Translations under genes and position numbers: made by a program
The notes under the pieces: generated by a model
Told to the model about the DNA's origin: nothing
Database searches by the model: none
What the model saw: only the letters and a program-made list of their open reading frames with translations
Part shown: piece by piece, positions 3,231 through 46,622 of the stretch
Layout: each line of letters starts with the position of its first letter
Position numbering within the stretch: position 1 is the first letter of the stretch
IMG/VR virus record: IMGVR_UViG_3300012983_003032
DNA: 64,000 nt
Reading direction: 5' to 3' (one strand)
DNA from: a virus

Positions 3231-3264
3231 AATATATTATATTAACGTCAAGAAATACTATAAT

Positions 3265-5440: not shown

Positions 5441-5570
5441 TTTTCTATATATTAATTAATATTAATATATTAATATATCTTTTAGATTACATTAATGTTA
5501 TAATTGAACTTTTGCAAAAATTCGGTTTTTAAGGTGAAATTCTTAAAAATTTAAAGTTAATATATATCTT
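5441..5570. promoter_or_regulatory. divergent intergenic region with AT palindromes and sigma70-like -10 (TATAAT at ~5502)
   Basis: tatattaattaatattaatatattaatatat is internally symmetric (TATATTAAT / ATTAATATA). ttagat..N11..tataat lies ~60 nt upstream of the + strand gene. Confidence 0.3.
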
Positions 5571-8580: not shown

Positions 8581-8700
8581 AGCTATGCTTGGCTAAAGAC
8601 CAAGCATATTCCCTAACATTTTAGCGTGTTAGGAGATTGTTTCGTGCATTACCCTTAACTCGCATCTGCGAGTGCCAGATTAGCCAACAATGAAGTTGAC
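8581..8700 (-). ncRNA. putative omegaRNA (reRNA) scaffold overlapping tnpB 3' end and right-end hairpins
   Basis: By analogy with characterised TnpB systems, the guide RNA derives from the tnpB 3' end plus RE. Two hairpins are present at 8585-8633. Not verified. Confidence 0.3.
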
Positions 8701-10064
8701 AACACGCTACCAGTGTCTTTTGACAGCTTCTTTTCAGAAGCCTTTTCCTGGCTTTCCTCAGCTTCCCTGAGTACTTTTATAGCTTCAGTTTTTATATTAA
8801 CTGCTGCATTTTTGTCTCGTTGATGAATTTGTCCACATTCAGGACAAATCCAATTCTCCAAATGGAATTTCTTAACTTCTGGATTCTTAAAACCACAACA
8901 AGAACAAGTTTGTGAAGAGGCAAAGAATTTGTTTACTTTGATGATATGGCATCCATATCTTTCGCCTTTCCATTTTAATTTAGAAACGAAAGTTGACCAA
9001 GAGATGTCTTGGTAATTCTTTGCGTTTCTTGAGCCTTTCATCATTCCTTGGATAGACAAATCTTCAATTCCGATAAGTTGGTTTTCCTTTGTCAGTCTCA
9101 AAGATTCTTTTTCTATCCAATCTAAACGACAATTTGCAATATGCTCTTCCAAAGAAGCAATTTTGATTCTAATTTTTTCTTTGTTTTTAGAATTTTTAAT
9201 TTTTCTTGCATATTGTCTTTGAAGATGAGAAAGTTGAGAAAGATGTTCTTGTTTTTGCTTTTTGAATCCATAATCAGCTTTAGCTGACTTTTCGTTCGAG
9301 TCTATGTACATATCATCACAGTCAAAGTCTAAACCTATGACTTGGTTTTCGTCTAAGTCTTTAACTTTGACTTTCTGCTTAAAGTCTAAATTGACTTCAA
9401 ACAAAATTGTGATGTAATATTTTCCGTTAGGTGTTCTTGAGCAAGTGTATGAACAAACTTTAGTTCTGTTTTTATACCATTTTGGTAAGTTTCTGTGAGA
9501 AAACTTAATTTTCCCAATTTTGGGAAGTTCTACAGTTTTAGAGTTCCAATCTAAGAAGTTTTGTTTCATCTGTGAGTCTTTGAAGGAATTTTTAGCTTTC
9601 TTGGAATGGAATTTTGGCTTTTCTGATTTTCCGGAAAAGAAATTGCTATAAGCAGTTCTTAAATTCATAACTGCATTTGCTTTTCCTTGACCATTAGCTT
9701 CCTTCAAAAAAGGAAATTGTTGAGTCAATTCTGAAACTTTTGGTTCGTGGTATTTCTTATATTCAGAATTCGTTATTTTTCTAATAGCTTCAAGTTCGGC
9801 CTTTAGATTTTTGATTTCTTGCTTATTTTCTTTTGAATTTTTTTGCAGCTCTTCGAGCTTTTGAACTTTTTCGTAATAGTCAAATTCTTTTCTTAATGGA
9901 ACTATGGCGTTTTCGTAGAATTGATTTTTTGAATTTAAGAGGTAGTTGTAGATGAATCTAACACAACCAAAAGTCTTGTCCAATTTAGACTTTTGTTCTT
10001 GAGATGGGTTTAGTCTGAGCTTAAGTGCTAAATTTACACTTCTGTAACTAATTGTATTAGACAT
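8655..10064 (-). CDS. tnpB: TnpB (IS605 OrfB) RuvC-like RNA-guided endonuclease homolog
   Basis: 469 aa. RuvC-I (IGLDFD), RuvC-II (IGIEDL), zinc finger CSCCGF...CPECG and RuvC-III (HQRDKNAAVNI) in canonical order. Confidence 0.9.
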   Translation of the reverse strand: MSNTISYRSVNLALKLRLNPSQEQKSKLDKTFGCVRFIYNYLLNSKNQFYENAIVPLRKEFDYYEKVQKLEELQKNSKENKQEIKNLKAELEAIRKITNSEYKKYHEPKVSELTQQFPFLKEANGQGKANAVMNLRTAYSNFFSGKSEKPKFHSKKAKNSFKDSQMKQNFLDWNSKTVELPKIGKIKFSHRNLPKWYKNRTKVCSYTCSRTPNGKYYITILFEVNLDFKQKVKVKDLDENQVIGLDFDCDDMYIDSNEKSAKADYGFKKQKQEHLSQLSHLQRQYARKIKNSKNKEKIRIKIASLEEHIANCRLDWIEKESLRLTKENQLIGIEDLSIQGMMKGSRNAKNYQDISWSTFVSKLKWKGERYGCHIIKVNKFFASSQTCSCCGFKNPEVKKFHLENWICPECGQIHQRDKNAAVNIKTEAIKVLREAEESQEKASEKKLSKDTGSVLSTSLLANLALADAS

Positions 10065-10092
10065 TCAATAATCATTCCTTATTGTTTGTTTA

Positions 10093-10133
10093 GAAAGCTA
10101 TGAGAATCCCCATTCTTGTAGCTTTCGTTTTTT
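10093..10133 (+). terminator. plus-strand intrinsic terminator-like hairpin inside the IS, antisense to tnpB 5' region
   Basis: gaaagcta...tagctttc stem followed by gttttttc. Confidence 0.4.
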
Positions 10134-10331
10134 CTATTTAATTAGTAGAAACTTTTTGAAAAGGTTCTTATTTAATTAGTTAACTAGTTAACTACTTGTT
10201 AATATTTAATTTTAGAGCCATTCACGTGCTAAGCTAAAGACTTAGCACTTATCTGGCTCATTTTTTATATAATTTTTTAAATCTGTTAGTAAATATTGTT
10301 GTTTTTAAGAAATCTTCGTTAATATATTTTT

Positions 10332-10775
10332 ATGAGAATATCAGATTTTAATATAGAAATGAATTGGCCTAACGGTGGTGAAATAGTGTGGAGTAAATTA
10401 ACACCCCATGTAGTACCTTATTTGTCAGATGACTTTAAGTATGAGTCATTTTATCATCAGCAAGGTATATCAAAACCCATACCACCAAAATCTTTTAATC
10501 TTACTTTTAATTTAGGTCAAGATGCAGATATTTATAATTACCTAAAAAGCTTTTTTACGTCAAAGTCAAGAAAATATTATGGATTATACAGTCTTAAAGA
10601 TAAGGGATGGATATATATACATAATAGAATGTTGTATGCTAAAAATAAAAATGTACTTCGGAAAAAGTACATAAAAATGATTAATAATTTAATTCCATTA
10701 TATACTTATGAAGAAGATAGTTTGATTAAATATCAGCATGATAAAAATGTTGTTATTAAGCCATTTTGGTTGTAG
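10332..10775 (+). CDS. hypothetical protein (147 aa)
   Basis: ORF with coding-like composition. Confidence 0.45.
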   Translation: MRISDFNIEMNWPNGGEIVWSKLTPHVVPYLSDDFKYESFYHQQGISKPIPPKSFNLTFNLGQDADIYNYLKSFFTSKSRKYYGLYSLKDKGWIYIHNRMLYAKNKNVLRKKYIKMINNLIPLYTYEEDSLIKYQHDKNVVIKPFWL

Positions 10776-11275
10776 AGGTTCAAATGATTGGTGCAATATT
10801 CTGTTTAGGACTTGCTACTCTTATAAGTCACTATTTCATTAAGTCTCAATTAGACTTGGATTTAACAAAAGTTTGTAATGAACGAAATCAAAAAATTGAT
10901 AGAAGCCCAAATTGTAAAATATATATGATTTTGGCACACTATAATACCACACAAATGAAGATTCCTATGTCTTTTACGAGTTTAACTGATTATAAACCTC
11001 CTAGATGGGAGATATCTAAAAATCCATTTTCATTTAATGGTATGGAATTTAAATCCGCAGAAGTTAAACCTAATCCTTGGAGTCATCAAATAATTAATAA
11101 TGCAATTGAAACAATCAAGCAAAATTTTAGAATGACAGTGGGGATAAATACTGACGAAATTCAATATGACCTTTATCTATTAAGGGGTAATGATTTTTTG
11201 GACGGATACACAAGTAAAATTGTAAATGGCACAGAACAGGATATTAGAAATTACAGTTTTTCGGAAGATATGTGA
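10766..11275 (+). CDS. hypothetical protein with N-terminal TM helix (169 aa)
   Basis: N-terminal MIGAIFCLGLATLISHYFI hydrophobic segment. Confidence 0.4.
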   Translation: MVVEVQMIGAIFCLGLATLISHYFIKSQLDLDLTKVCNERNQKIDRSPNCKIYMILAHYNTTQMKIPMSFTSLTDYKPPRWEISKNPFSFNGMEFKSAEVKPNPWSHQIINNAIETIKQNFRMTVGINTDEIQYDLYLLRGNDFLDGYTSKIVNGTEQDIRNYSFSEDM

Positions 11276-11284
11276 GGTTAAAAA

Positions 11285-11761
11285 ATGAAACTGAGGACTA
11301 TTATTCTTACAGACCCCGTTAAAGCTGTAAATAAAATAAATGGTGAAAAAACACTCCAGTTCTTTGAAGAAAGTGTTATCAGCCATATAACAGACGTTAC
11401 CTCATTTTATGGAAATGAGTGTCTGTATTTCTTAGCCTATAAAGATAATAATCTTGTAGGTGTGGCAGTTGTGAGCGAAGAACGTACAGATATTAAAGGA
11501 CCTATGTCTGCCCCTTTTATTAGGGAGTTTGGTACAGTTAACTATACCAAAACTTGTAAGTATGCCAAAAAGGGGATAGGTGAGGAACTTTTAAATCATA
11601 TTATAAAACGAGTTGGGAACAGACTTACATTATCCTGTTTAGACAGTAATTCCGAACAATTTTGGAGATATATCGGTGAAAAGAAAGGATTGAAAGTTGA
11701 AGAAATTGGAAGAACTGTATGGGGTACACCAACTTTGTATTTTCGGGATTTTAAGGGTTAA
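11285..11761 (+). CDS. GNAT-family N-acetyltransferase (probable)
   Basis: SD GAGGT upstream. Acetyl-CoA binding-like KKGIGEELLNHII motif (R/Q-x-x-G-x-G/A) in a beta-alpha context. Confidence 0.5.
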   Translation: MKLRTIILTDPVKAVNKINGEKTLQFFEESVISHITDVTSFYGNECLYFLAYKDNNLVGVAVVSEERTDIKGPMSAPFIREFGTVNYTKTCKYAKKGIGEELLNHIIKRVGNRLTLSCLDSNSEQFWRYIGEKKGLKVEEIGRTVWGTPTLYFRDFKG

Positions 11762-11794
11762 AATTGCTATATTATAAATGTATAGGAGAAAATT

Positions 11795-13498
11795 ATGGCA
11801 AAGTCACAGAAAAAAATTAAAGAATGTAAACATAATGGCACTCGTTTTCCAGACCTTTTTAAGAGTAGAGGATTTACTCTTGCGGGTGTGTCACTTTATA
11901 ACAGTGATGTTGACTCTGCAGAAGAAATGCTTTGGCATTATGCAGCAAAGTTAGACACAGACTATGTTAAGAATGAAGTTTTTAACAAAAACTTTTATTT
12001 GTGTCTTAAAGAACAACTTCCTGAAACTTTAAGAAATATAAAGTTTCCTGATGGATTTATGTCTGTTCTTACAGAAATGAAGAAGTTGCAGGAAAAAGAA
12101 AAAGAAGAAAAAACACAGTATAAAAAAGACCATAAAGAAGAACTTAAAAAAGAGGCAGAAGACCTTAAAGAAGAATATGGATATGCAATTCTTAATGGTG
12201 AAAAACAGCCTCTTATGTCAAATTTGGTAGAAGGCCCTGGGATTTTTATTGCTCGTGGAGATGCACCCCTTCTTGGTATGTGGAAATACCGTACTATGCC
12301 AGAAGATGTAACAATTAACTATATTGGACCAAAAGAAGAAACTCCAAAAGCACCTGAAGGACATCATTGGAAGAAAGTAACTAATAATCAGGTATATTAT
12401 ATTGCTTCTTATGAAGTAGATATCGGACACATTACAACAAAGAATAAAGAAATTCGTTTTGGTAGTGGTTCTTCTGTAAAGGCTGATGCAGACCAAAAGA
12501 AGTTTGATAAGGCAGTAAATCTTTTACAGCATAAAAAAGAAATGGAACAGTATATTCGTGAGAACCTTACAAACCCTGACCCTAAAATTGCTGAGTGTGC
12601 TCTTATTTCTTGGTTATTGCAAGAAACAGGTATTCGTATAGGTAATTCTAAAAATGTCGAAATTGAAGCCGATACTGTTGGGGCGTCTACTTTGAAAAAA
12701 GAAAATATTTGGGCAGATGACGGAAAACTTTATCTTAATTTTATTGGTAAAGATTCGATTGTTTATAAAAATGAAATTGAAGTACCAAAGTATATTGAAA
12801 CTGCAATTAATCGAAAAGTTAAAAAGGCTAAAGATGGTGAACAGATTTTCAGTGTAGACTCAAATGATGTTAACAAATTCTTAGGAGCTTGTGTGGAAGG
12901 ATGTACTCCAAAGTTGTGGCGTACTGCAATTGCAACTGAACTTCTTGTAAATGCCTTTAAGGACCAACACGTTAAAAAGTCTATGACTGTAACTGAAAAA
13001 CTTCGTGCTTTTGACCTTGCAAATCTTGAAGTTGCGAAAAAATTAAATCATAAAAAAGCTGTATCAAAGAATTATGACTCACAGATTGAAAAGTTGGATT
13101 CTACTATTGAATCAGATGAGAATAAGTTTAATGAACTTAAAATTAAATTAACTGCTGAAATTAAAGAGCTTGATAAAAAAATTAAAAAAGCAAAAGAACT
13201 TGGTCTTGATAGAAATGTAAAATCTTTTAAGGAAACTAAAAAGAAAAAACAGGAACGTCTTACAAAGGCAGAAGAAAGTCTTAAAAACAAAAAGTTTAAG
13301 AGAGAATTCAAAGAACAGACAATGGATATTGCCATTGGTACGTCAAGAACAAATTATTGTAGTCCAAAAATTGCTTATAGTATCTGTAAGGACTTGGATA
13401 TTCCAATTGAAAAGATTTATTCTAAGTCTCTTTTGGAAAAGTTTAAGTGGGCAGAAAATGTAAGTAAGGATTATTGGAGAAAGTACCCAGATGTATAG
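11795..13498 (+). CDS. type IB DNA topoisomerase, eukaryotic (nuclear TOP1)-like with linker domain
   Basis: Recalled human TOP1 segments align along the protein: LKEEYGYAILNG...EGPGIFIARGDAPLLGMWKYRTMPEDVTINY with the TOP1 core; ADTVG and FIGKDSI; KLWRTAIATELL with KVFRTYNAS; and the catalytic-Tyr region AIGTSRTNYCSPKIAYSICKDLDIPIEKIYSKSLLEKFKWA with [41 protein letters not shown]. A ~100-aa coiled-coil linker precedes the active-site Tyr. Confidence 0.9.
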   Translation: MAKSQKKIKECKHNGTRFPDLFKSRGFTLAGVSLYNSDVDSAEEMLWHYAAKLDTDYVKNEVFNKNFYLCLKEQLPETLRNIKFPDGFMSVLTEMKKLQEKEKEEKTQYKKDHKEELKKEAEDLKEEYGYAILNGEKQPLMSNLVEGPGIFIARGDAPLLGMWKYRTMPEDVTINYIGPKEETPKAPEGHHWKKVTNNQVYYIASYEVDIGHITTKNKEIRFGSGSSVKADADQKKFDKAVNLLQHKKEMEQYIRENLTNPDPKIAECALISWLLQETGIRIGNSKNVEIEADTVGASTLKKENIWADDGKLYLNFIGKDSIVYKNEIEVPKYIETAINRKVKKAKDGEQIFSVDSNDVNKFLGACVEGCTPKLWRTAIATELLVNAFKDQHVKKSMTVTEKLRAFDLANLEVAKKLNHKKAVSKNYDSQIEKLDSTIESDENKFNELKIKLTAEIKELDKKIKKAKELGLDRNVKSFKETKKKKQERLTKAEESLKNKKFKREFKEQTMDIAIGTSRTNYCSPKIAYSICKDLDIPIEKIYSKSLLEKFKWAENVSKDYWRKYPDV

Positions 13499-13802
13499 AT
13501 TAAAATACACATATATGCAAATTAAAAAATACTTCCAGCAGAAAAAGTGTAAGCATAAGTACATTCTTATAAGGGACGTACATGGCGACGAGATAAACAC
13601 TTACTGCCAAAGTGTACGAAGTATTTGGAAATGTTTATAGCGTGTTGCGTAAAAGTCCCACATCTTTAGTGTGGGACATGTAGCAACACAAAGTCGTACT
13701 TTTGCTTTACGCCCAATGCTACTAAATATATAAAAGTTTATGCAAAATACAAAGAAAACCTAAAATGTATAAACTTTTGAGATAATATAATATTAAATAG
13801 AT

Positions 13803-14231
13803 ATGGCAAGAAAACTTGAAAGTTCAGCACATTCAAAGCATCTCATAATGTACCACTTGATATTTGTGGCAAAGTATAGAAGGAAGATATTTTCTTTCCA
13901 CGACTTTGGTGACGCTTTGAAACAAAAGTTTCTTGACATTTCTTCAAACTATGAGTTTTCAATAGATACAATAGACTTGGACTACTCTAAGCCAGACCAT
14001 ATACACATTCTTGTAAGAAGTATTCCTACATTGTCACCAGACCAAATAGTAAGAGTTCTGAAACAAGAAGCAAATATCTGGGCTTGGGATAACTATGGTC
14101 CTTGGCTCAAGAAGTTTTACCATAGAAGTCATCATCTCTTTACACGTGGATACTATTGTGGTTCAGTAGGAAATGTTTCCGCAGATACAGTAGCAAAATA
14201 CTTAGAAGACCAAGGGAGGAACGGATGCTAA
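13803..14231 (+). CDS. tnpA: IS200-like Y1 (HUH) transposase TnpA
   Basis: 142 aa. HUH motif HIHILV and C-terminal catalytic Tyr region (TVAKYLEDQ), size typical of IS200 TnpA. Confidence 0.85.
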   Translation: MARKLESSAHSKHLIMYHLIFVAKYRRKIFSFHDFGDALKQKFLDISSNYEFSIDTIDLDYSKPDHIHILVRSIPTLSPDQIVRVLKQEANIWAWDNYGPWLKKFYHRSHHLFTRGYYCGSVGNVSADTVAKYLEDQGRNGC

Positions 14232-15421
14232 AAGCGTATAAATATCGTATCTATCCTACTCAAGAACAAGAAACATTTCTATGTAAAGAACTCGGTTTGA
14301 AAAGACTCTATTGGAACATCTCACTTGCAAATAAGAATGCAGACCATTCTTACAAGCTTACTTCATACAAAGAAACATTTTCAAAATATAAGCCAGAAGC
14401 ACTTGAATGGTGTAAAGAAATAGACAGTACTGCTATGGCAGATGTTTGGAATGACTTGACACAAGCGTTCAGAAACTTCTTTGCATCTTGCAATGGTACA
14501 AGAAAAGGAAAGTTCGTAAAGCCACCAAAGTTCAAGTCTAAAAAGAATATGAAAGAGTCTATTGGCTACACTGCTATGGCAAAGCCAAAGTTTGTAAACG
14601 GAAAACTTTTCATAACAAGAAAACTTGGACTTCTAAAAGGTGCATACTATTGTCAGTTCTGTGAAGGAAAGTTAAAGAACGTAACTATAAGCAGAACTGC
14701 TACTGGTAAATGGTTTGTATCTATTTGTGTTGAGAAGAAAGACGAACCAAAGAACAATAACGGCAAAGCGATAGGAATAGACTGGAACTGTAGAGATGAC
14801 GTTTTTCTTACTTTAAGTGATGGCACGAAAGTCAAGTGTCCTCGCTTCCTAAGAGAAAAGGAAAAGCAGCTAGCTCACTATCAGAAACTCATGTCTAAAA
14901 AGTTTGTGAAAGGAAAACAAAAACAGTCTCAAAACTATTACAAAGCAAAATATAAAGTTGCTAAACTTCACGAAAAGGTTTCTTGGCAAAGACAAGACTG
15001 GTTGCATAGGTTGTCTTACGACTTGGCACAAAAGTATCAGTATGTCATTGTCGAAGACATCAACTTGCAGTCTATGGCACAAATGCATCACGGAAGAGCA
15101 GTTGGTGACCAAGGGTTTGGAATGCTAAGGAGTATGATAGCTTACAAAACTACTTTAGTGAAAGTTTCAGCAAAGAATACTTCTAAGACTTGTCATACTT
15201 GTGGGTATGTAAACCCAAAGGTTGTTTTAGGTGTTGAACAATGGAAATGCCCTGTCTGTTCTTCTGAACATGACAGAGATATAAATGCAGCCCTGAACAT
15301 CTTGAATAAAGGTGTTACTAGTCTGGGCGTAGTAGGCAGGGAACGAGCCGAAAGTACAAATGCCTGTGGAGTGCCACGAAGCACTGCGAAGCAGGAAGTC
15401 CACGTTGCCATCGAGCCTTAG
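14225..15421 (+). CDS. tnpB: TnpB (IS605 OrfB) RuvC-like nuclease
   Basis: Starts MLKAYKYRIYPT (classic TnpB N-terminus); the table ORF from 14156 is a TTG extension. Contains EDINLQ (RuvC-II), zinc finger CHTCGY...CPVCS and RuvC-III HDRDINAALNI. Confidence 0.9.
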   Translation: MLKAYKYRIYPTQEQETFLCKELGLKRLYWNISLANKNADHSYKLTSYKETFSKYKPEALEWCKEIDSTAMADVWNDLTQAFRNFFASCNGTRKGKFVKPPKFKSKKNMKESIGYTAMAKPKFVNGKLFITRKLGLLKGAYYCQFCEGKLKNVTISRTATGKWFVSICVEKKDEPKNNNGKAIGIDWNCRDDVFLTLSDGTKVKCPRFLREKEKQLAHYQKLMSKKFVKGKQKQSQNYYKAKYKVAKLHEKVSWQRQDWLHRLSYDLAQKYQYVIVEDINLQSMAQMHHGRAVGDQGFGMLRSMIAYKTTLVKVSAKNTSKTCHTCGYVNPKVVLGVEQWKCPVCSSEHDRDINAALNILNKGVTSLGVVGRERAESTNACGVPRSTAKQEVHVAIEP

Positions 15422-15480
15422 TTTCGGCTCGTAAGCAACTATGGAATGTCCCAGGTCTTTAGCCTGGGGCAGCGTTCAAT
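15300..15480 (+). ncRNA. putative omegaRNA scaffold (tnpB 3' end plus RE hairpin)
   Basis: Inferred from TnpB biology. The RE hairpin sits 30 nt after the tnpB stop. Confidence 0.3.
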
Positions 15481-15504
15481 ACATGAAAATTACGAGGTGT
15501 TGAA

Positions 15505-15669
15505 ATGACAATTATTTTAGAAGACAGTGATATCCGTAAGATTATTGCAGAAAAGTTTAATGTAGACCCAGAAGATATAGATTTTTCAGCTAAAGAAAAA
15601 GAAGAAGACTGTGGAATCGTAGACGTTAAATTCACTGCAGTTTCTGCAGTAATTACCAAGGAGGTGTAA
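15505..15669 (+). CDS. hypothetical small acidic protein (54 aa; not in ORF table)
   Basis: ATG at 15505 preceded by GAGGTG. Ends TAA 2 nt before the next gene's GTG. Confidence 0.35.
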   Translation: MTIILEDSDIRKIIAEKFNVDPEDIDFSAKEKEEDCGIVDVKFTAVSAVITKEV

Positions 15670-15670
15670 T

Positions 15671-15988
15671 GTGAAAAAAAGAAATATTGGCCTTGTAACT
15701 AATAGTGGTTCTAGTGATTGGAGTAATTTTAACGAACTTTCCTATGCAGACCTTATAGCCTCATTAAAGAGTGACTATTTTTTCTTTAGAGTATCTGACC
15801 CAATGAATAATGGACATAGTGCAGAATATAGAGAAATCTTAAAAACTTGGTGGGGTGTAAAAGTAAAAACAGTTGGGTATATAGACTTGGACAAAGTAGT
15901 ATTTGACGGAAAAACATACTATTTTCCTGAGTCATCAAGAACTTACGGATGGAATTTATGCCAAAAGAAGAAAAAGAAAAAAGATTAA
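15671..15988 (+). CDS. hypothetical protein (GTG start, Lys-rich C-terminus)
   Basis: Strong SD AAGGAGG 7 nt upstream of GTG. Confidence 0.45.
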   Translation: MKKRNIGLVTNSGSSDWSNFNELSYADLIASLKSDYFFFRVSDPMNNGHSAEYREILKTWWGVKVKTVGYIDLDKVVFDGKTYYFPESSRTYGWNLCQKKKKKKD

Positions 15989-17075: not shown

Positions 17076-17116
17076 ATAATTATATTAACAAAATTGAATC
17101 CTTCTAAGAATTAGAT

Positions 17117-17196: not shown

Positions 17197-19695
17197 ATGG
17201 CATTAGTAAGAATGAGAGAAAGTCTTTGTATGCCTGCAAAGTACTATCAGGATATTACAGATACTGCACCAGCAAGTATTAAAGAATCTTTGAATAGTGC
17301 TAGACAGTCAGGAAGACTTACTGAGTCTACAAATGTAACAGTTAACTCTTTAGTTAAGATTCTTAGAGAGTCTAATATTGACGAAACTACTGTAGGAAAA
17401 GTAGTTACAAAATTAAAGTCTGACGGTGTTAACTTACAGGAACATAAGATTTATCGTGTTCCTATCAGTAGAATTAACCACCCAGAAAGAGGTGAGTTTA
17501 ATGGTAACGGTAGAGGATACAGCTCTGAGTTATGGCATAATGTAATGGACAATCAACAAGATGCTTGGAAAGGTCTTTGTGGGTTGGCAGACCACCCTAC
17601 AGACGACAACGACCCAGGTTCTTTCAAAAATAGTTCTATTGTTTGGTTAGGTATGGAAGTAGATGACCTCAATGATTTGGTATATGGTATCGGTTCTTTT
17701 GTAGGACCTTATGGTCATTTGGCACAGGAAATCATTGATTGTGGTGGTCGTGTAGGATTCAGTTCTTCTGGATTTGGTGAACTTATGCCTGACGGACATA
17801 CAGTAAACCCAGACACATATCAAATTGAACGTCTTGCAGACGTAGTATTAAATCCTTCACAGGACGTATACGGTGCAATTAACGACGAACAACGTAATAT
17901 CGAATACAGTGGTCCTAAAGAGGCAGTTGCTTCAACAGGAAATCAAAGAAATGGTATAAGCACATCTTATGGTGAATCTCGTGTATCATATAAACAATAC
18001 AATACATATAAGGAGTCAAACTCAATGGAAAATAACGGAATTAACTCAGCTTTTTCAAAAGTTAAGGAAAAGGAACTTAGAAAATATATTAAAAATTATT
18101 TAAATGAAAATACTGCAATCACTAATCCTATTAAGCAGTTGAAAGACCTTGAAGAAATTAGAGGTCTTATTCAGGAAGGTCAGTTAGAAGACCTTGAACC
18201 AGAAGTTCTTGCAAGAATGGAAGAAGCTAACAATAAGATTGAGGCAGCCGTAGAAAAGGGTATGAAAATCCAAGAAACAGAGGTAACTGTTTCTACTCCA
18301 GACGGAATCAATATCACTTTGAATGGTGACGGTGGTGCAGCACCTGTTTCAACTGCAATGGACGTTACTACACCTATAGACGGTGAAGTTTCTCTTGATG
18401 ATGAAGAAGAAACTTTCTTGGAATCAAACAAAATTGTAAAGGGTAAAAAACTTACAAAAGCACAGGAAAAATCAGTTCGTGCATATGTTAATAACTTTAT
18501 GAACGAATCTCACGAAGGTATGAACCCTCTTAAAGTTTATACTGACTTGACAGAAGTACTTGAATTGGTACGTGAATCTAAGTTTGACGACTTGGAAGAA
18601 GGTGTAGTTTCTAAACTTGAAGAAACTGCAAAACAGATGGAAAAAGACCTTAATGATGCTGTTACTATGAAAGCTAAACTTGGTTCTAAAGACCTTGCAG
18701 AAATTACTGAAAAAACTCAGGGTATTTTGGAAAAAGGTGAATTACTTGTTGAACAGTGTGCAGACTATAAAACTCTTTGTGAGGCACTTTCAAATAGAAA
18801 CCAAGAATTGGTTAAAGAATATCAAGCTTTGAAATTGAAGTTTGACCTTAATGAGTCTAAAGAAGAAGACTCAGTTCTTGCAAGAAATCAGAAAGTTGCA
18901 GAACTTGAAAATAAACTTGAAGAAGCAACAAAGAAATATGATGAACTTGACTTTGCTGCTGGTAGTAAAATGGCTGAACTTAACGAAGCTTTAGGAAAGG
19001 CAACAAAAGGTAATGTCAAACTTGAAAAAGAACTTGGTATTGCAAATTCTAAATATAAAGAAGCAACTGAAAAACTTAACAGTATGAAGACTTTCTATGA
19101 GTCTGAATTAGCAAAGTTGTCAGAAAAGAATAAAGAACTTGAAGAGTCATTAAAAACTAAAGAGGCAGAGGCTTCTAAGTTTGGTGAATCAATTGATAAT
19201 GTTCTTGCACAATTTAAGGCTTTACAAGAGTCAAATGCACAATTAACTGAAGAAGTTAAGAATTTAAAGGAAAATAAAACTTCTGACACTAATGAAGAAG
19301 TAGCTGAAGACACTTCTTCTGAAGAACCAAAAGACGAAAAGAAACCAGCTACTTTGGAAGAAGCAGTTTCTTTCAAAGACAGTGGAGTAGAAGGTTTCTG
19401 GAATGACTTACATACAAAATATGGTGAAGCCGTAGAACCTTATGAAATGAAGATTCGTGGACAGAAAACAATGCGTGAAGCTCAACTCGCTTGGATGGGA
19501 GTTATGAATAAAGTAGACGCAAATTTAAGAGTTGTTCAGGAAACTACATTTTATAAAAATGGTGTAATCTCACAAGGTCAAAGACTTCATAAATTGCACG
19601 AATGTGGTATGTTAACTTCAAAAGATGTTGAACAAGACGTTAATGAAATAAATGCAAGATTCCTTGCTAAAATGAAGGCTGCAGGTTTAAATTAA
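17197..19695 (+). CDS. virion morphogenesis protein: N-terminal globular domain plus ~450-aa C-terminal coiled coil (scaffold/prohead-protease-like organisation)
   Basis: 832 aa. The C-terminal half is heptad-rich and highly charged. Function inferred only from architecture and position. Confidence 0.55.
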   Translation: MALVRMRESLCMPAKYYQDITDTAPASIKESLNSARQSGRLTESTNVTVNSLVKILRESNIDETTVGKVVTKLKSDGVNLQEHKIYRVPISRINHPERGEFNGNGRGYSSELWHNVMDNQQDAWKGLCGLADHPTDDNDPGSFKNSSIVWLGMEVDDLNDLVYGIGSFVGPYGHLAQEIIDCGGRVGFSSSGFGELMPDGHTVNPDTYQIERLADVVLNPSQDVYGAINDEQRNIEYSGPKEAVASTGNQRNGISTSYGESRVSYKQYNTYKESNSMENNGINSAFSKVKEKELRKYIKNYLNENTAITNPIKQLKDLEEIRGLIQEGQLEDLEPEVLARMEEANNKIEAAVEKGMKIQETEVTVSTPDGINITLNGDGGAAPVSTAMDVTTPIDGEVSLDDEEETFLESNKIVKGKKLTKAQEKSVRAYVNNFMNESHEGMNPLKVYTDLTEVLELVRESKFDDLEEGVVSKLEETAKQMEKDLNDAVTMKAKLGSKDLAEITEKTQGILEKGELLVEQCADYKTLCEALSNRNQELVKEYQALKLKFDLNESKEEDSVLARNQKVAELENKLEEATKKYDELDFAAGSKMAELNEALGKATKGNVKLEKELGIANSKYKEATEKLNSMKTFYESELAKLSEKNKELEESLKTKEAEASKFGESIDNVLAQFKALQESNAQLTEEVKNLKENKTSDTNEEVAEDTSSEEPKDEKKPATLEEAVSFKDSGVEGFWNDLHTKYGEAVEPYEMKIRGQKTMREAQLAWMGVMNKVDANLRVVQETTFYKNGVISQGQRLHKLHECGMLTSKDVEQDVNEINARFLAKMKAAGLN

Positions 19696-24735: not shown

Positions 24736-24832
24736 TCTAATATTTAGTCAAGCAAAATGTTTTTTAAAAAAGTGTTAATATGTTAGTAAGTCCACAGTAT
24801 TGTGGGTATATTTATTTTTAAGAGGTGATATT

Positions 24833-25051
24833 TTGTCACAGGTTGTAAAAGTAATCGTAGAGGACACAGGTCATCCTGAAAAAGACCTTGAACGAGCTCT
24901 ACGTAAATTCCGAAAGGAAGAAGAAGCCGAAGACATTCTTAATGAAATTAAGAAACGTCAGTATTTTACAAAACCTTCTGCTATAAAACATGAACAGAAG
25001 AAACATTCAGCACACAAGGCTGAATTAGAAAAAAAAGAAAAAGGAAGGTGA
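24833..25051 (+). CDS. rpsU: ribosomal protein bS21 homolog (phage-encoded)
   Basis: MSQVVKVIVEDTGHPEKDLERALRKFRKEEEAEDILNEIKKRQYFTKPSAIKHEQKK parallels E. coli bS21 ([47 protein letters not shown]). TTG start at 24833 with AAGAGGTGA SD; the table ORF from 24800 is an upstream TTG extension. Confidence 0.75.
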   Translation: MSQVVKVIVEDTGHPEKDLERALRKFRKEEEAEDILNEIKKRQYFTKPSAIKHEQKKHSAHKAELEKKEKGR

Positions 25052-25114: not shown

Positions 25115-25238
25115 AAGTATGTATACTTGTGTGAACGGAGTCTCAGTTAAATACTTTAGTATATTTCTTCCCCATATACTAAATATGTACGATTTGTTTG
25201 TAAATTACAAACATTTAAAATTAAAAAGGGGGATAAAA

Positions 25239-26162
25239 TTGGAAACAGTTAAAGTGAAAATGTCAGATGGAAAAGAAATTGTATTAAACAAATTTCTACC
25301 ATCTAAAAAAATTAAAGCTGTAATAGTATTACATCACGGTCAAACAGAGCACTCTTTAAGATATACTCATTTTGCAGATTTCTTAAACAAAAATGGTATA
25401 GCATTGTATGCTCACGACGGAAGATGTCATGGTCAATCCGTAGATAAAATCGAAGATTTGGGTTACTTAGACTACAATAAAGGGTTTGATACAGTAACTT
25501 CGGATTTGCATACTATTATTGAAACTTGCCGTAAAGATTTACCTGACGTTAAAGTTTTTATTGCAGGACACTCATTTGGTTCTTTTATTGTTCAAAATTA
25601 TATTGAAAAATATAAAGCAGATAATGAAAACTTCGGTGGTGCAATATTATTAGGTTCTGCAGGACCAAAACCATTCTTAATGTTTGCAGGTATTTTACTA
25701 GCAAAAGTAGTTACATTTTTCAAAGGTAAAAAAGGGATAAGTAAATTACTCCATAAAGTAATGCACGGTTCTTATAATGACCATTTCCCTGGTGAGGGTG
25801 AAAATGCTTGGTTGACTCGCGATAAAGAAATTCAAAAGGCATTTGAAGATGACCCTAGATGTGGATTTGAACCTACAAACGCATTTAGACATACATTCTT
25901 AAAAGGTTTATTTAACATCCATAGACAAAAGAACCTTGCTAAAATAGATGTGGATTTACCAATTTTAATTATGTCTGGTACAGAAGACCCAGTAGGTGAC
26001 TATGGTAAATCTGTAGATAAATTGGTATCAGCATACAAAGATTATAGAATCAAATCACTTAAAGTAAAAATGTATAAAGACGCAAGACACGAACTCTTAA
26101 ACGAGTTGAATAAAGATGAAGTTATGAAAGACCTTTTAGATTGGGTTAAAGAAAAACTTTAA
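25239..26162 (+). CDS. alpha/beta-hydrolase, lysophospholipase / monoacylglycerol-lipase family
   Basis: VLHHGQTEHSLRYTHFADFL...HDGRCHGQS (HG oxyanion region), nucleophile elbow GHSFGS, and later Asp/His. TTG start at 25239 after GGGGG SD (alternative ATG 25260); the table ORF from 25119 is an extension. Confidence 0.75.
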   Translation: METVKVKMSDGKEIVLNKFLPSKKIKAVIVLHHGQTEHSLRYTHFADFLNKNGIALYAHDGRCHGQSVDKIEDLGYLDYNKGFDTVTSDLHTIIETCRKDLPDVKVFIAGHSFGSFIVQNYIEKYKADNENFGGAILLGSAGPKPFLMFAGILLAKVVTFFKGKKGISKLLHKVMHGSYNDHFPGEGENAWLTRDKEIQKAFEDDPRCGFEPTNAFRHTFLKGLFNIHRQKNLAKIDVDLPILIMSGTEDPVGDYGKSVDKLVSAYKDYRIKSLKVKMYKDARHELLNELNKDEVMKDLLDWVKEKL

Positions 26163-27023: not shown

Positions 27024-30000
27024 ATGAAATCATTTCGTCTTATATTTGTAGACCAAGATGAAAGCTATACAGTACAAACTGTTACTAGCCCTATTAAAGG
27101 TTTCATTTCAGTACGTGCCCCTAAAGGTACAACTGAAGCAATGTATTTTGAATACGGAAATGAAAAGGCAATAGATGCTATGATAGGTCTTGGTACTGCT
27201 GATTGGCCTGATATTAAAGAGGCAGTGGCATTTAACAGGTCTTATGGACTTTATATTTCTGCACCACCAGGAAATTGTGAAGACTACCCTACATATTATG
27301 GTGGATGTTATTTAACAACAAAAGGTTTATTTAACTTCTGGAGAGTAAATGACCCAGACGAACCTTCTTTTGATATTCAAGTTTACCCAGGATTTGAAAA
27401 TGTAGACTATGATGAAACTTTTGCTAAGTCAGAAATTGATGTTGTAGATATCAATACTGAGGCAGGAAAATCTTCTATTATTAAGATTACAAATATCGAC
27501 GCAAGAGTTTTCCAGAGAATGTCTTACTTTACTCTTAAATGTTGGGCAGACACTTCTACAAGAATTGGTGAAAATGAAGAAATTAAATATCACTTGGTAA
27601 ACGGAAAGATTTTCTCAGTTTATGACGACGAAGATTCTGAAATTCAAGCAGGTTTCTATGAACTTACAAGTGACGGTACTTATAATATCATTTTAGGTGC
27701 AACCGCAATTACTTCTCAAGACGATATCGTTCCAATTGATAAAAACATTACTACAGTTGTTGTTGTAACACCTTCTGCTACTAACGGTGGAGAAACTACT
27801 ACAGTAAGTTCTTTCTCTAGAGCAAGATTTGTAAGTACTTATAAATTAAAAGAAGGAAGATTCTTCTATAAAGATAAGGCTTGCACTGTACAGGCTGGTA
27901 TTTCTTCAACTGACGCAGATGGAAACACTATTACTGAGGATATGCCATCTACAGTATATGTAAAGGCAGCAGATATTGACACATTAAATGTAACAAAATA
28001 TACACCATCAAAGAATACTTTGAGTACACCTCATGTACCATACTTTGATATGACAAAGTTCTTGGGTGAGTATAACGCATTTGATATTTCAACAATTTAT
28101 TCTGATGATATTGAAGGACTTACAGGTCTTGAACTTATTAGATATCTTATCTTGAATGGATGTAGTAGTCTTGTTACTCTTAAAGGTAAGTTCAATAATG
28201 CAAATGTTGAAAAATACATTACTCCTACAGTTGGTCTTGTAGATAGAATCTACTGGAATATCAATGTAAAGAATGACTGTTTTATGTACGTTTCTCAGAA
28301 GTCACCTAACGAAACTCCTACTTCTATCACTATTAGTAACATTGGTTATGATAAGTATAAGTATGATATGCACGTTAGCTACATTTTGAAATCTGACTTC
28401 GACAAATTCAGAGACGGCTCTGTTGCACCTGACGGATTTATCAAAGCTGTTATTGCAAGTAATGCTGACGGTATTATTGACGTAGTAACTTCTACAGCTG
28501 AAAAAGACTTCTTAACACCAAGTACTAACCTCCATGCACTTTATCAGTATAGTACTGTAACAGGTGAATGGGTAGACGTTACACCAAATTATAAGACTAA
28601 GACTTTCTATATTGACGGACCTTTGGATTGTAAAGGTGTTAATGATAATAGTACAGTTAATGCTTTCTGTAAGTATACAATCTGGAAGATTGTAAATGTA
28701 AAAAAACCTGACTCATTTGAACATGAAACATATCAGATGAAGAATGGTGGAAACTATCCTTTGAAGTCTGATATTAACTATAACACTGTAACTATTTCTT
28801 GTAAAGAAAAAGTTTACCCAGGTACTTATACAACTGGTGGTACACATTATGGTTCTTTGAACCCAGAAGGTGTAGATGCAGCAGGAACAAATATTTATTT
28901 CCCTAACGTTCTTCCTAATGAAGAAACTGCTACATTCTTTAATGTTTATCCAGTTCATACTTTAGAGGAATTAGGTTGTGTAAATGATAATGGATTCTAT
29001 ACTGGTGTTAAGATTGTTGACCCAATCGGACCAGAACAAGATACATATACATTTACTATTAAAGGTCAGAGACCTATGACAGCCGCAGTTCAGGCTAACA
29101 TTGATGCAGGTACTGTAGGATGTGCTTGGACAACTAACGAAGTTTATGGTACTAGAGTAGACGCAATCTTCGAGGCTGCAATTAATGACTCTATTATTGA
29201 ATGTCAGGACGATATCTATGACGATGCACTTGTTATTATGGAATGTTCTGGACAGGAAGTATTTAAGTCTGCTTTAATGTCTTTAAGACAATCTCACCGT
29301 GATACAAGTACTATTATCTCTCCAAAGATTATTACTAAGGCAGAGTTTAATAATCCAAATACTATTGTAGTAAATGGTCGTGTAACAGGTACTGCACAGT
29401 ATATCGGTGAATTCAAGATGTATGACTCTAACACAGGTAAGTATTACTGGTGTCAACCAATTGGTGACGTTGGTGCTATGCTTGCTCGTATTATGGAAAA
29501 GAAATATGGTGGAATTGCACCTGCGGGTACAAATGATAGTCAGGGTCTTGGTGGTGTTCTTCCAAGAGCAGTTCTTGCTGCAAAGTGGAACTTCAAAGAT
29601 TCTCAGTTACAGATTCTTGACGGAAAAGGTTTGAACCCTATCACATTTGACTCAAAATATGGTCTTATGATGCAAGGTCAGAAAACAACTCAAGACCCAG
29701 ATAACGTAACTGACTGGTCTTACCTTGGACACTCAATGTCATTTGACTTGTGTAAACGTGAAATCCGTGATAACGTAATGGTTAAACAAGTTCACAAACG
29801 TATTAGTGATAACTACTTCACTATTCGTGAAAAGCAGGTTAAGGCTATCCTTGACAAACGTACAACTGGTAATGACCCTATTTGGGCACTTGCTACTGTT
29901 GACGTTGCTGGTGTTAATACTCCTTCAACTATGGCACAGAGAAAGTTCTGTATCAAGGTTAAAGTTAAAGTGTACGTGTACAGCGATTTTGTGGAACTCA

Positions 30001-30026
30001 CATTCGTTACGCTCGGACAGGAGTAA
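27024..30026 (+). CDS. large virion structural protein (1000 aa), beta-rich
   Basis: Strong SD AAGGAGA. T/S/N/V-rich composition typical of capsid/sheath/fibre proteins. Unusual C-terminus KVKVKVYVYSDFVELTFVTLGQE. Confidence 0.6.
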   Translation: MKSFRLIFVDQDESYTVQTVTSPIKGFISVRAPKGTTEAMYFEYGNEKAIDAMIGLGTADWPDIKEAVAFNRSYGLYISAPPGNCEDYPTYYGGCYLTTKGLFNFWRVNDPDEPSFDIQVYPGFENVDYDETFAKSEIDVVDINTEAGKSSIIKITNIDARVFQRMSYFTLKCWADTSTRIGENEEIKYHLVNGKIFSVYDDEDSEIQAGFYELTSDGTYNIILGATAITSQDDIVPIDKNITTVVVVTPSATNGGETTTVSSFSRARFVSTYKLKEGRFFYKDKACTVQAGISSTDADGNTITEDMPSTVYVKAADIDTLNVTKYTPSKNTLSTPHVPYFDMTKFLGEYNAFDISTIYSDDIEGLTGLELIRYLILNGCSSLVTLKGKFNNANVEKYITPTVGLVDRIYWNINVKNDCFMYVSQKSPNETPTSITISNIGYDKYKYDMHVSYILKSDFDKFRDGSVAPDGFIKAVIASNADGIIDVVTSTAEKDFLTPSTNLHALYQYSTVTGEWVDVTPNYKTKTFYIDGPLDCKGVNDNSTVNAFCKYTIWKIVNVKKPDSFEHETYQMKNGGNYPLKSDINYNTVTISCKEKVYPGTYTTGGTHYGSLNPEGVDAAGTNIYFPNVLPNEETATFFNVYPVHTLEELGCVNDNGFYTGVKIVDPIGPEQDTYTFTIKGQRPMTAAVQANIDAGTVGCAWTTNEVYGTRVDAIFEAAINDSIIECQDDIYDDALVIMECSGQEVFKSALMSLRQSHRDTSTIISPKIITKAEFNNPNTIVVNGRVTGTAQYIGEFKMYDSNTGKYYWCQPIGDVGAMLARIMEKKYGGIAPAGTNDSQGLGGVLPRAVLAAKWNFKDSQLQILDGKGLNPITFDSKYGLMMQGQKTTQDPDNVTDWSYLGHSMSFDLCKREIRDNVMVKQVHKRISDNYFTIREKQVKAILDKRTTGNDPIWALATVDVAGVNTPSTMAQRKFCIKVKVKVYVYSDFVELTFVTLGQE

Positions 30027-31166: not shown

Positions 31167-31279
31167 TTGTATTTTTATTTTTAAAAATAATTATTTTTTT
31201 AACTACCCCACACGTAAAATCAAATATTTAAGATTTGTTAATATATTTTTATAAATATAAAATTTTGGAGGTTAAAGCA

Positions 31280-32773
31280 ATGTTATTTATTGCAGGTATT
31301 GTAGCAGTAGTACTTTTGATATTACTGTTTATTACATCTTACATTAAGGCTTCACCTGATGAGGCTTTAATTGTTTCAGGTCTTCGTAAAAAACCAAAGA
31401 TTATTATTGGTAAGTCGGGATTTAGAATTCCTTTCTTGGAAAAGAAAGACCGACTCTCTCTTAAACTTATCCCTATTGATGTAAAAACCAGCTCGTCTGT
31501 ACCGACTGCAGACTATATCAACATTAATGTTGACGCAGTAGTAAACGTAAAAGTTTCAGATGACTTTGAAAAAATTAATCTTGCAGCACAGAACTTCTTG
31601 AATAAAGATACTGAAAAAATTGGTGCAATTGCCCGCGAGGTACTTGAGGGTAATATGCGTGAGATTGTAGGACAGATGACATTGGAACAGATGGTTTCTG
31701 ACCGACAAACTTTTGCCGAAAAAGTAAAGGATAATGCAGCTCCAGACCTTGCAAAGATGGGATTGGATATTGTTTCTTTTAATGTTCAGAACTTTATTGA
31801 TAATAATAATGTTATTGAAGACCTTGGTGTTGATAACATTACTAAAATTCGTAAAAAGGCTGCAATTGCAAAGGCACAGTCTGAAAAGGAAATTGCTGTT
31901 GAACAAGCTAAGGCTCGTAAAGAGGCAAATGACGCAAAGATTGAGTCTGATACACAGATTGCTATTAAAGAAAATGCACTTGCATTGAAGAAGTCTGAAT
32001 TGGACGCAAAAGCGGGTACTGAAAAGGCAAAGGCAGATGCAGCATATAAGATTCAACTTGAGGAACAGAGGAAAACTCTTGAAATTACAACTGCAAACGC
32101 AAATATTGCAAAGCAGGAAAAAGAGGTAGAAATCCGTCGTAAAGAAGTAGAAGTCCAGGAACAAACTCTTGACGCACAAATCAAGAAACAAGCAGAGGCA
32201 GATAAGTATGCAGCATTACAAAAAGCCGACGCAGATTTGTATACTCGTCAGAAAGAGGCTGAGGCAAGAGCATTTGAACTTCAAAAACAAGCTGAGGCAG
32301 AGGCTTATCAGAGACAGAAGAAAGCAGAGGCAGATAAAGCTGCAATGGAAAATGAAGCAACTGGTAAGAAAGCTCTTGCAGAGGCTGTTCAGGCACAAGG
32401 TGAGGCAGAAGCCGAGGCAATTAAAGCTAAACTTGTTGCAGAAGCTGATGGTATGCGTGAAAAGGCAGAGGCACTTAAAGAATATGGTGATGCTGCTAAA
32501 CAACAAATGCAACTTGACGCACTTAAAGTTTACTTTGAACAGTTGCCAAAGATTGCAGAGGCAGCAGGTAAAGCATACCAGAGTGTTGACAAGATTTATA
32601 TGTACGGTGGAGACTCTTCAAAGTTGCAAAGTGATATTATGAAGAATGTTACACAGGTTTCAGAGGGTCTTGGTCAGACAATGGGTATTGACCTTAAAAC
32701 ACTTCTTGGTGCTTTCGTAGGTAGTAAACTTGCTGGCAAAGGCACAGACTTAGAATTGCCTAAGACAGAATAA
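31280..32773 (+). CDS. SPFH (band-7/flotillin-like) membrane protein with long coiled-coil EA-rich tail
   Basis: N-terminal TM MLFIAGIVAVVLLILLFI, then a YqiK/flotillin-like SPFH core (ALIVSGLRKKPKIIIGKSGFRIPFLEKKDRLSLKLIPIDV...INVDAVVNVKV), then a ~250-aa KAEA-repeat coiled coil. ATG at 31280 after GGAGG; the table ORF from 31235 is an extension. Confidence 0.75.
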   Translation: MLFIAGIVAVVLLILLFITSYIKASPDEALIVSGLRKKPKIIIGKSGFRIPFLEKKDRLSLKLIPIDVKTSSSVPTADYININVDAVVNVKVSDDFEKINLAAQNFLNKDTEKIGAIAREVLEGNMREIVGQMTLEQMVSDRQTFAEKVKDNAAPDLAKMGLDIVSFNVQNFIDNNNVIEDLGVDNITKIRKKAAIAKAQSEKEIAVEQAKARKEANDAKIESDTQIAIKENALALKKSELDAKAGTEKAKADAAYKIQLEEQRKTLEITTANANIAKQEKEVEIRRKEVEVQEQTLDAQIKKQAEADKYAALQKADADLYTRQKEAEARAFELQKQAEAEAYQRQKKAEADKAAMENEATGKKALAEAVQAQGEAEAEAIKAKLVAEADGMREKAEALKEYGDAAKQQMQLDALKVYFEQLPKIAEAAGKAYQSVDKIYMYGGDSSKLQSDIMKNVTQVSEGLGQTMGIDLKTLLGAFVGSKLAGKGTDLELPKTE

Positions 32774-40357: not shown

Positions 40358-40361
40358 TTAT

Positions 40362-40393
40362 AGAAAAACCCTACAATTATGTAGGGTTTTTTA
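40362..40393. terminator. intrinsic terminator (aaccctac-aattat-gtagggtt + TTTTTT)
   Basis: 8-bp perfect stem, A-run before, T-run after. Confidence 0.55.
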
Positions 40394-40417
40394 ATTTTTC
40401 AATACTATTCACCCGTT

Positions 40418-40427: not shown

Positions 40428-40429
40428 AT

Positions 40430-44940: not shown

Positions 44941-44942
44941 AT

Positions 44943-46609: not shown

Positions 46610-46622
46610 GAGGTAATTTTTA

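Follow-up and report, generated by a model that had tools for sequence, protein, structure and literature searches.

Type IB topoisomerases (Topo IB) occur in a short form, found in bacteria and viruses, and in a long, TOP1-type form, described from eukaryotes and, among prokaryotes, only from Thaumarchaeota/BAT archaea (PMC4824112, PMC8748870, PMC2621148). The CAP domain defines the long form and is missing from the poxviral and bacterial enzymes, and the long-form enzyme of Caldiarchaeum subterraneum (CsTOP1) relaxes positive as well as negative supercoils (PMC4824112). From the distribution of the long form it has been argued that Archaea and Eukarya inherited this enzyme from their common ancestor (PMC2621148). 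For jumbo phages, a survey reported only a phage-specific topoisomerase I, in Motura, PaBG, phiRSL1 and Lu11 (PMC7824862). Here we describe a long-form Topo IB gene at positions 11795–13498 (+ strand) of the IMG/VR virus record IMGVR_UViG_3300012983_003032, of which a stretch of 64,000 nucleotides (the window) was analysed. The enzyme family is known; what is new is its unexpected carrier, a phage. A literature search returned no report of long-form Topo IB in phages, which is absence of evidence only as the coverage of the search was incomplete, and the recent reviews and huge-phage surveys searched made no mention of a TOP1-type enzyme. The explanation that we favour, with a probability of roughly 0.8, is that the protein is an active, long, clamp-forming enzyme of the TOP1 type, encoded by an old and vertically inherited gene of a huge contractile-tailed phage.

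Domains, active site and predicted fold

The gene encodes 567 amino acids (aa), and its identification draws on Pfam domains, matches to PDB entries, an AlphaFold2 model and the ratio of nonsynonymous to synonymous divergence (dN/dS). Its ATG is preceded at a distance of 6 nt by a Shine-Dalgarno (SD) sequence, AGGAG, read directly from the DNA (11784–11788, +). Three Pfam domains, all scoring far above their curated cut-offs, are arranged end to end along the protein: the CAP/DNA-binding module Topoisom_I_N (PF02919; 11819–12424, +; aa 9–210; E 7e-38, 130.7 bits against a cut-off of 25), the catalytic core Topoisom_I (PF01028; 12470–13144, +; aa 226–450; E 3e-44), which contains R281, K319, R376 and H419, and the C-terminal domain Topo_C_assoc (PF14370; 13274–13474, +; aa 494–560; E 2e-19), which contains the catalytic Tyr521 (codon 13355–13357). 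The predicted secondary structure adds a linker in the form of an antiparallel two-helix coiled coil (13073–13318, +; aa 427–468 and 472–508). In the PDB, the best sequence match was C. subterraneum TOP1 (6z01, E 6e-64); human TOP1 matched with E 4e-61 in an unbroken alignment over residues 41–558, linker included, and variola Topo IB reached just E 0.011. The small N-terminal domain of the short poxvirus and bacterial enzymes (virDNA-Topo-I_N) gave no Pfam match in the protein, and searches of NCBIfam and PHROGs assigned it to no family.

By alignment, the catalytic pentad R281/K319/R376/H419/Y521 corresponds to human R488/K532/R590/H632/Y723 and is invariant in 172 of 172 aligned homologues, and the phage motif GTSRTNY aligns with human GTSKLNY so that Y521 equals Y723. 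A sequence-only reading of this DNA had likened the protein by eye to nuclear TOP1 across the core, the linker and the tyrosine region. The Pfam domains and the PDB alignment bear out this resemblance, the motifs GTSRTNY, PIEKIY and EKFKWA are all present, and each of the five pentad residues is in place. Compared with its orthologue in locus L088, a relative on a 442-kb scaffold, the gene has a dN of 0.078, a dS of 0.735 and a dN/dS of 0.107 over 565 codons, which indicates purifying selection on a functional protein. From the conservation of the active site and this dN/dS of 0.107 we infer that the enzyme would relax supercoils of either sign, forming a 3'-phosphotyrosyl intermediate and needing no ATP.

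The AlphaFold2 model, built from an alignment of 28 sequences, has a mean predicted local distance difference test (pLDDT) score of 93.3 and a predicted template modelling (TM) score, pTM, of 0.83, and it places the two linker helices with pLDDT >90 between the core and the tyrosine domain. In Foldseek searches against the PDB, the model matched human topo70 with an ordered linker (1rrj, 1k4t) at TM 0.86 and a root-mean-square deviation of 3.4 Å over 565 residues. Human TOP1 structures without an ordered linker were matched at TM 0.72–0.76, and the short variola and Deinococcus enzymes at TMq 0.27–0.32, over the catalytic core only. The protein therefore does not group with the short bacterial and poxviral enzymes (TMq ~0.3), nor is the similarity in the linker spurious, and the predicted two-helix linker can be taken as real. 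The spacing between the catalytic His and Tyr is 102 aa in the phage protein (clade median 106 aa), against 91 in human and other eukaryotic enzymes, a median of 79 in the archaeal-like group, 67 in CsTOP1 and a median of 72 in giant viruses. As judged from the aligned sequences, the phage linker region is thus longer than in any other group compared. In sum, the protein has every feature of the long-form Topo IB family that was checked by sequence and by predicted fold.

Among the described enzymes, the archaeal long form (CsTOP1 and Nitrososphaerota topIB) shares with the phage protein the three Pfam domains, the pentad, the linker, the lack of a long N-terminal tail, a similar length (~520–540 aa vs 567 aa) and the same side of a 100% split in the phylogenetic tree considered below. 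It differs in being ~32% identical, in having a much shorter linker (67 aa in CsTOP1 vs 102 aa), in forming a clade (91%) that excludes the phage sequences, and in its carrier, an archaeal chromosome instead of a bacterial virus. Human TOP1 has the same whole-chain fold including the linker (TM 0.86), and its drug-contact residues R364, D533 and N722 are matched by the identical residues R154, D320 and N520 of the phage protein. However, the two are only ~28–30% identical, the phage protein falls outside the eukaryote clade (100%), and it lacks the charged N-terminal domain of ~200 aa, with 10 residues before the core compared with a median of 215 in eukaryotes. The earlier description as a full eukaryote-like enzyme consequently holds for the long form with its linker, but not for the long N-terminal domain of nuclear TOP1. 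Sensitivity to camptothecin, considered on the basis of R154, D320 and N520, was dropped as a prediction since CsTOP1 is resistant despite a similar architecture (PMC4824112, PMC8748870).

Giant viruses (Dasosvirus, Marseillevirus LCMAC and many giant-virus metagenome-assembled genomes, GVMAGs) likewise encode a full-length TOP1, and Dasosvirus and Marseillevirus LCMAC were the only full-length viral fold matches in BFVD (TMq 0.78–0.82). These enzymes differ from the phage protein by their separate clade (97%) beside the eukaryotes, by the median His-to-Tyr spacing of 72 aa and by loci with ~0% SD motifs vs 64% in the window. The short enzymes of variola/vaccinia and Deinococcus radiodurans and the jumbo-phage topoisomerase I share the tyrosine-recombinase-like catalytic fold and the pentad, but all of them lack both the Topoisom_I_N cap and the linker, and they align over the catalytic core only, at 13–18% identity. 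The jumbo-phage proteins (Motura, PaBG, phiRSL1, Lu11) matched the model only in part (TMq 0.33–0.42, 13–17% identity). The earlier statement that phage and poxvirus Topo IB enzymes are normally of the minimal type should not be extended to viruses in general, given the many giant viruses of eukaryotes with a long form. That a long form is unusual in a phage was confirmed: tblastn with the protein against 50,697 deposited phage records gave no match at E 1e-5, and the known phage topoisomerase I proteins are the partial matches just described.

Phylogenetic position and inheritance of the gene

Of the candidates scored in a large protein database, 360 are relatives of the enzyme at E ≤ 1e-10. 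Every one of the 120 relatives listed has Topoisom_I_N and the catalytic core and, except for a few short fragments, also Topo_C_assoc, and many of those listed are on contigs of 100–940 kb. IMG/VR yielded ~170 relatives with 30–37% identity, many of which are giant-virus MAGs, including dozens of full-length matches with 30–33% identity on giant-virus contigs. Translation signals separate two kinds of carriers: an SD motif precedes 30–83% of the open reading frames (ORFs) in 26 loci, comprising relatives of the window, ~20 IMG/VR contigs and three MAG contigs, while every GVMAG or giant-virus locus has ~0% SD motifs. A scan of genome contigs with clade-specific peptides found 3 loci only and says little on the cellular distribution of the gene.

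The phylogeny was reconstructed as an unrooted neighbour-joining tree with simple distance correction (196 sequences, 516 columns, 200 bootstraps), which included 19 labelled Nitrososphaerota/Caldarchaeum sequences, four eukaryotes and 51 giant-virus loci. Eukaryotes and giant viruses were split from all other sequences, i.e. the contigs with SD motifs and the archaea, with 100% support, and all 21 distinct SD-locus sequences in the tree (21/21) were on the non-eukaryote side. The eukaryote (100%), giant-virus (97%) and archaeal (91%) clades all exclude the query. The remaining 79 sequences consist of 16 SD loci and 63 unlabelled proteins, and the query is placed in a core clade of 69 members (86%) made up solely of SD-using or unlabelled metagenomic sequences. 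The SD-using, ORFan-rich contigs of this diverse phage branch measure 62–940 kb. Judging from this tree, the phage enzyme is positioned outside the eukaryotic, archaeal and giant-virus lineages, and we propose that the phage sequences represent a deep lineage of their own that is nested in no sampled cellular or giant-virus clade.

Two smaller groups stand out in the same tree. Six IMG/VR loci with SD motifs (L009, L011, L012, L013, L016 and L021; 62–388 kb) belong to a tight second subclade in which 9 of 10 sequences group at 100%. It joins the main phage clade at 52% and scores 424–513 bits against all group hidden Markov models (HMMs), much higher than the query. Phage-borne long-form Topo IB may hence comprise two lineages. 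The archaeal clade, on the other hand, also takes in two Anaerolineae MAG contigs with a GC content of 58–62%, L092 (DAOTYB010000248.1, Anaerolineae MAG) and L093 (DYLA01000001.1, Anaerolinea sp. MAG). Their long-form enzymes of 820–830 aa branch inside this clade and have a His-to-Tyr spacing of ~262 aa, implying an insertion of ~190 aa in the linker region. Either bacteria also have a long-form enzyme, in conflict with the published distribution, or the bins are contaminated.

The gene is flanked by two IS605-family insertion sequences (IS), which had been pointed out before and proved to be genuine. Upstream lies a stand-alone TnpB gene (8655–10064, −; 469 aa; Pfam/NCBIfam TnpB) and downstream an IS200/IS605 element with approximate boundaries at 13640–15472 (+), consisting of TnpA (13803–14231, +; NCBIfam IS200 transposase, 93 bits vs a cut-off of 55) and TnpB (14225–15421, +; NCBIfam TnpB, 243 bits vs a cut-off of 100), with subterminal hairpins at both ends. 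No DNA similarity was found by blastn between the upstream TnpB gene and the downstream element. The latter is a strain-specific insertion: on the same-strain contig L005 the topoisomerase gene is followed directly by the downstream genes, and this empty site bounds the insertion to ~13640–15472. The insertion was not clean, as L005 has 22 bp (TTGTGGCAAAATAATACATAGA) at positions 2492–2513 in place of the IS, and both IS junctions are flanked by similar GTTTAT / CGTTyAwTACATG strings. In L088, where the topoisomerase is 87% identical, there is no IS on either side of the gene, and window and L088 have a common gene order of helicase, PD-(D/E)XK nuclease, topoisomerase, an 857-aa protein and a 722-aa protein. 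The loci free of IS downstream (L005) and on both sides (L088) indicate that the elements are recent, independent insertions and not the delivery route of the gene, and the relevance that had been attached to them was thus not supported.

The IS-free synteny in L088, together with a sheath gene or baseplate-like block close to the topoisomerase gene in distant relatives, argues for vertical inheritance. Moreover, identity across the topoisomerase clade goes down to ~36% among phage-like contigs, a spread that points to a long residence of the gene. By these comparisons of sequence and gene order, the topoisomerase appears as a long-standing, vertically inherited gene of a huge-phage family. 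The earlier hint of a recent horizontal acquisition was not supported, given the conserved synteny in the 87%-identical relative and the deep clade outside those of eukaryotes, giant viruses and archaea.

The phage that carries the gene

The exact protein is encoded on the metagenomic contig k141_1467315 (ENA ERZ27246346; 425,174 bp), and four shorter contigs encode it as well. Taken together, the sequence features described in the following point to a contractile-tailed bacteriophage as the carrier, with a genome of at least 425 kb, above the 200 kb that mark the huge-phage class. One structural gene is a predicted contractile tail sheath of 1000 aa (27024–30026, +). On its own, the ORF had a weak match to Afp3 (E 0.22) and single-sequence PDB searches were insignificant, but an exhaustive search found 258 relatives, and a profile built from 30 of them matched T4 gp18 with E 2.3e-15 and also the Afp3 and Pvc3 sheaths. 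No match to the sheath candidate was obtained by tblastn against the deposited phages. An SD motif is located at −18 to −3 of 30 of the 47 ORFs in the window (64%), compared to 0 at a control offset. A homologue of ribosomal protein bS21 is encoded at 24800–25051 (+; Pfam Ribosomal_S21 E 2e-9; NCBIfam S21p equivalog 38.2 bits vs a cut-off of 28.95). It shares 80% identity with its L088 counterpart, and bS21 is a component of bacterial ribosomes only. The chaperonin (56241–57914) is of the bacterial type, with 462 bits for GroEL versus 84 for the archaeal thermosome. The earlier assignment to an SD-using phage is thus backed by the T4-type sheath, the SD usage, bS21 and a bacterial GroEL.

The window has a GC content of ~32%. 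Most of its large ORFs have no Pfam or PHROG match, megablast of the window against the 50,697 deposited phages gave no nucleotide match, and no tRNA genes were found in the 64 kb. Further genes code for NAD+ synthase (NadE; 62626–63435, −), ThyX (32943–33725), an SPFH/flotillin protein (31235–32773), a histidine phosphatase (61768–62355, −) and an alpha/beta hydrolase (25119–26162). ThyX, NAD synthase, SPFH, the PD-(D/E)XK nuclease and the helicase make up a gene set that one would expect of a huge phage, and NadE fits the NAD+ synthesis module reported from gut jumbo phages (PMC11662467). The block at 38998–55111 appears to be a tail and baseplate module that is invisible to Pfam and PHROGs. 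Within it, the ORF at 47376–48857 has a weak PHROG tape-measure match, the 1066-aa protein at 40430–43630 contains long hydrophobic stretches and has the look of a tape measure by eye only, and a 1781-aa ORF in 48924–54269 has no detectable family. Regarding the host, the GroEL matches in phages are all ~37% identical and uninformative, and the best plasmid matches of TnpB are ~35% identical and taxonomically scattered, so no host hint was gained from TnpB.

Members of the topoisomerase clade that were inspected are ORFan-rich contigs of 131–940 kb that carry RecA, DnaK, HSP20, ThyX, lytic transglycosylase, TnpB and giant proteins of ~3000 aa. Homologues detected with the sheath profile are located near the topoisomerase on L095 (E 2e-201; a contig of 553,723 bp) and L006 (E 1.7e-197), and homologues of a baseplate-like block of four genes in the window (43615–47369) are found within 10 kb of the topoisomerase in L008, L014, L061 and L091. 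The shared sheath and baseplate-like block suggest that at least several branches of the clade are related contractile-tailed phages.

Two of these contigs deserve separate mention. L006 (ENA ERZ28612970, SHIW14-1_SAMN02144230 scaffold_1) is 940,564 bp long, with the topoisomerase at 10001–11944 and the sheath ORF at 12798–15827; like L095 it has SD-type starts and almost no Pfam matches. If it is one genome, it exceeds the largest phage record encountered (735 kb, LR756501), but it could also be a misassembly or a concatemer. L091 (JAZNWZ010000130.1, 306,108 bp) comes from a ‘Candidatus Fimenecus sp.’ MAG and has a phage-clade Topo IB that is 38% identical. Most probably, this contig belongs to a huge phage that ended up in the bin of a Clostridia gut bacterium, and as a hint to a Firmicutes host it is at best weak.

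Proposed role, alternatives and implications

The topoisomerase gene is located just downstream of the helicase/PD-(D/E)XK nuclease block and appears, from the arrangement of ORFs, to be the last of a four-gene operon (10332–13498). The upstream part of this likely operon (10318–11761, +) consists of the motif GTTAATATA (10318–10326, +), with the first operon ATG 5 nt downstream, and three ORFs on the same strand with short gaps, two of them of unknown function (10332–10775 and 10766–11275, +) and one resembling a GNAT-like acetyltransferase (11285–11761, +; weak match, E 4e-4). GTTAATATA occurs 11 times in the window compared to 2.3 expected (3238–3246 (−), 5556–5564, 10318–10326, 17081–17089 (−), 62371–62379 (−) and six more sites). 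Copies precede the ATG by 5–7 nt at the helicase gene, at the gene that opens the topoisomerase operon and at others without an SD site, and the motif is kept at orthologous positions in L088, including those of the helicase and the topoisomerase operon. By its placement, GTTAATATA looks like a phage-specific promoter giving rise to leaderless or near-leaderless mRNAs. A scan for sigma-70 promoters and terminators around the topoisomerase gene returned hits at chance level.

By analogy to the human and Caldiarchaeum TOP1 (PMC8748870, PMC4824112), the phage enzyme would close around duplex DNA as a clamp. Tyr521 would then nick one strand via a 3'-phosphotyrosyl link, assisted by R281, K319, R376 and H419, and the downstream duplex would swivel against friction from the cap and the linker before the nick is resealed. 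Supercoils of both signs could be relaxed in this way without ATP or Mg2+. Most likely, the enzyme would serve as the phage's own swivel for the torsional stress that arises when a very long genome is replicated and transcribed. The topoisomerase operon starts with the same promoter-like motif GTTAATATA as the helicase gene, which fits such a role.

Several other origins of the gene have to be weighed. A recent capture from a eukaryote, or from a giant virus of eukaryotes living in the same habitat, would explain the TOP1 architecture, the best full-length folds being human TOP1 and giant-virus proteins, the group-HMM scores that are marginally above that of the archaeal profile, and possibly the IS elements flanking the gene. 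We regard it as extremely improbable, since the protein shares no more than 30–36% identity with any eukaryotic or giant-virus sequence, no SD-contig sequence falls within the eukaryote (100%) or giant-virus (97%) clade, and the gene has a canonical SD site and a GC content of ~32% like its surroundings. Further, it lacks the eukaryotic N-terminal domain, shows synteny in a diverged relative (L088, dS 0.73) and belongs to a clade whose diversity, down to ~36% identity, implies long residence. Alternatively, the carrier might be an archaeal virus or a Nitrososphaerota element, and the gene might simply reflect the known archaeal distribution. This too is very improbable: bS21 is encoded in the window, the chaperonin is of the bacterial GroEL type and not a thermosome, the query clade falls outside the archaeal one (91%), archaeal enzymes are just ~32% identical to the phage protein, and the relative L091 comes from a bin that was assigned to Clostridia of the gut. 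These observations stand against the joint position of phage and archaeal groups across the 100% split from eukaryotes and giant viruses in an unrooted tree, the GC content of marine Nitrososphaerota, which resembles ~32%, and the ability of archaea to use SD sites together with the existence of tailed archaeal viruses. Next to no credence is left for the view that both flanking elements make up a composite IS605 transposon with the topoisomerase as its passenger. Although IS605-family genes are present on both sides (8655–10064 and 13803–15421) and TnpB genes are also found near the topoisomerase in L089, L090 and L096, the two elements have no detectable DNA similarity, L005 has the gene without the downstream IS and L088 with neither, and three other ORFs separate the upstream TnpB from the topoisomerase. 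IS200/IS605 elements move by single-strand peel-and-paste, and to our knowledge they do not form composite transposons.

A different question is whether an active enzyme has its main role elsewhere, either in collapsing host supercoiling during takeover or, packaged in the virion, in the ejection or packaging of the genome. A swivelase that relaxes negative supercoils would oppose the host gyrase. In favour of packaging, the topoisomerase adjoins tail or virion genes in relatives (the sheath in L006 and L095, baseplate-like genes in L008 and L091) and is located ~3.7 kb upstream of a large coiled-coil protein in the window; vaccinia Topo IB is likewise encapsidated (cited in PMC4824112). On the other hand, the nearest conserved upstream neighbours are the helicase and the nuclease, and the operon motif is shared with the helicase gene. 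We consider such a main role unlikely, though worth keeping in mind, and it would be compatible with relaxation of the phage genome as the two are not mutually exclusive.

The explanation favoured here, an active and long-resident TOP1-type enzyme of a huge contractile-tailed phage, also has to face several points that weigh against it. Monophyly of the wider, 79-member phage clade is supported by just 52%, and the tree is a distance tree with simple correction and not a maximum likelihood tree. The group HMMs gave the query 373 bits (eukaryote), 368 bits (giant virus) and 318 bits (archaeal); scores this close single out no sister group and no direction of ancient transfers. For the same reason, and because the tree is unrooted, we rejected the idea that the phage enzymes are sister to the archaeal ones. 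Most members of the clade are unlabelled metagenomic proteins, and phage carriers are known from the inspected ones alone. No capsid, portal or terminase gene was identified within the 64-kb window, so the phage assignment rests on the sheath and on markers of translation and host type. The ORF at 17197–19695, seen by eye as a prohead protease-scaffold fusion, was confirmed by no search. Finally, catalytic activity is deduced from conservation and the predicted structure, and the role in replication and transcription from the gene neighbourhood and the shared motif only.

If the favoured explanation is correct, a large, diverse and selectively maintained clade of long-form enzymes in bacterial viruses is a lineage that has been left out of the arguments on the origin of TOP1, and including it makes this question testable by a properly rooted phylogeny. 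Long-form Topo IB might have an ancient reservoir in huge bacteriophages that constitutes a fourth lineage in addition to those of eukaryotes, giant viruses and Nitrososphaerota, and a root of the long-form tree within or adjacent to the phage sequences would make the archaeal enzyme, and ultimately eukaryotic TOP1, virus-derived; we see this as an improbable outcome. If true, it would parallel the viral origin that has been proposed for eukaryotic Topo IIA (PMC9752973). The phage proteins are also compact, tail-free enzymes with the longest natural linkers among the groups compared, which makes them suited to work on the linker, strand rotation and drug sensitivity. For the biology of huge phages, the finding adds a eukaryote-like trait to their repertoire and implies that an ATP-independent swivelase may be useful for genomes of 0.2–0.9 Mb inside bacterial cells.

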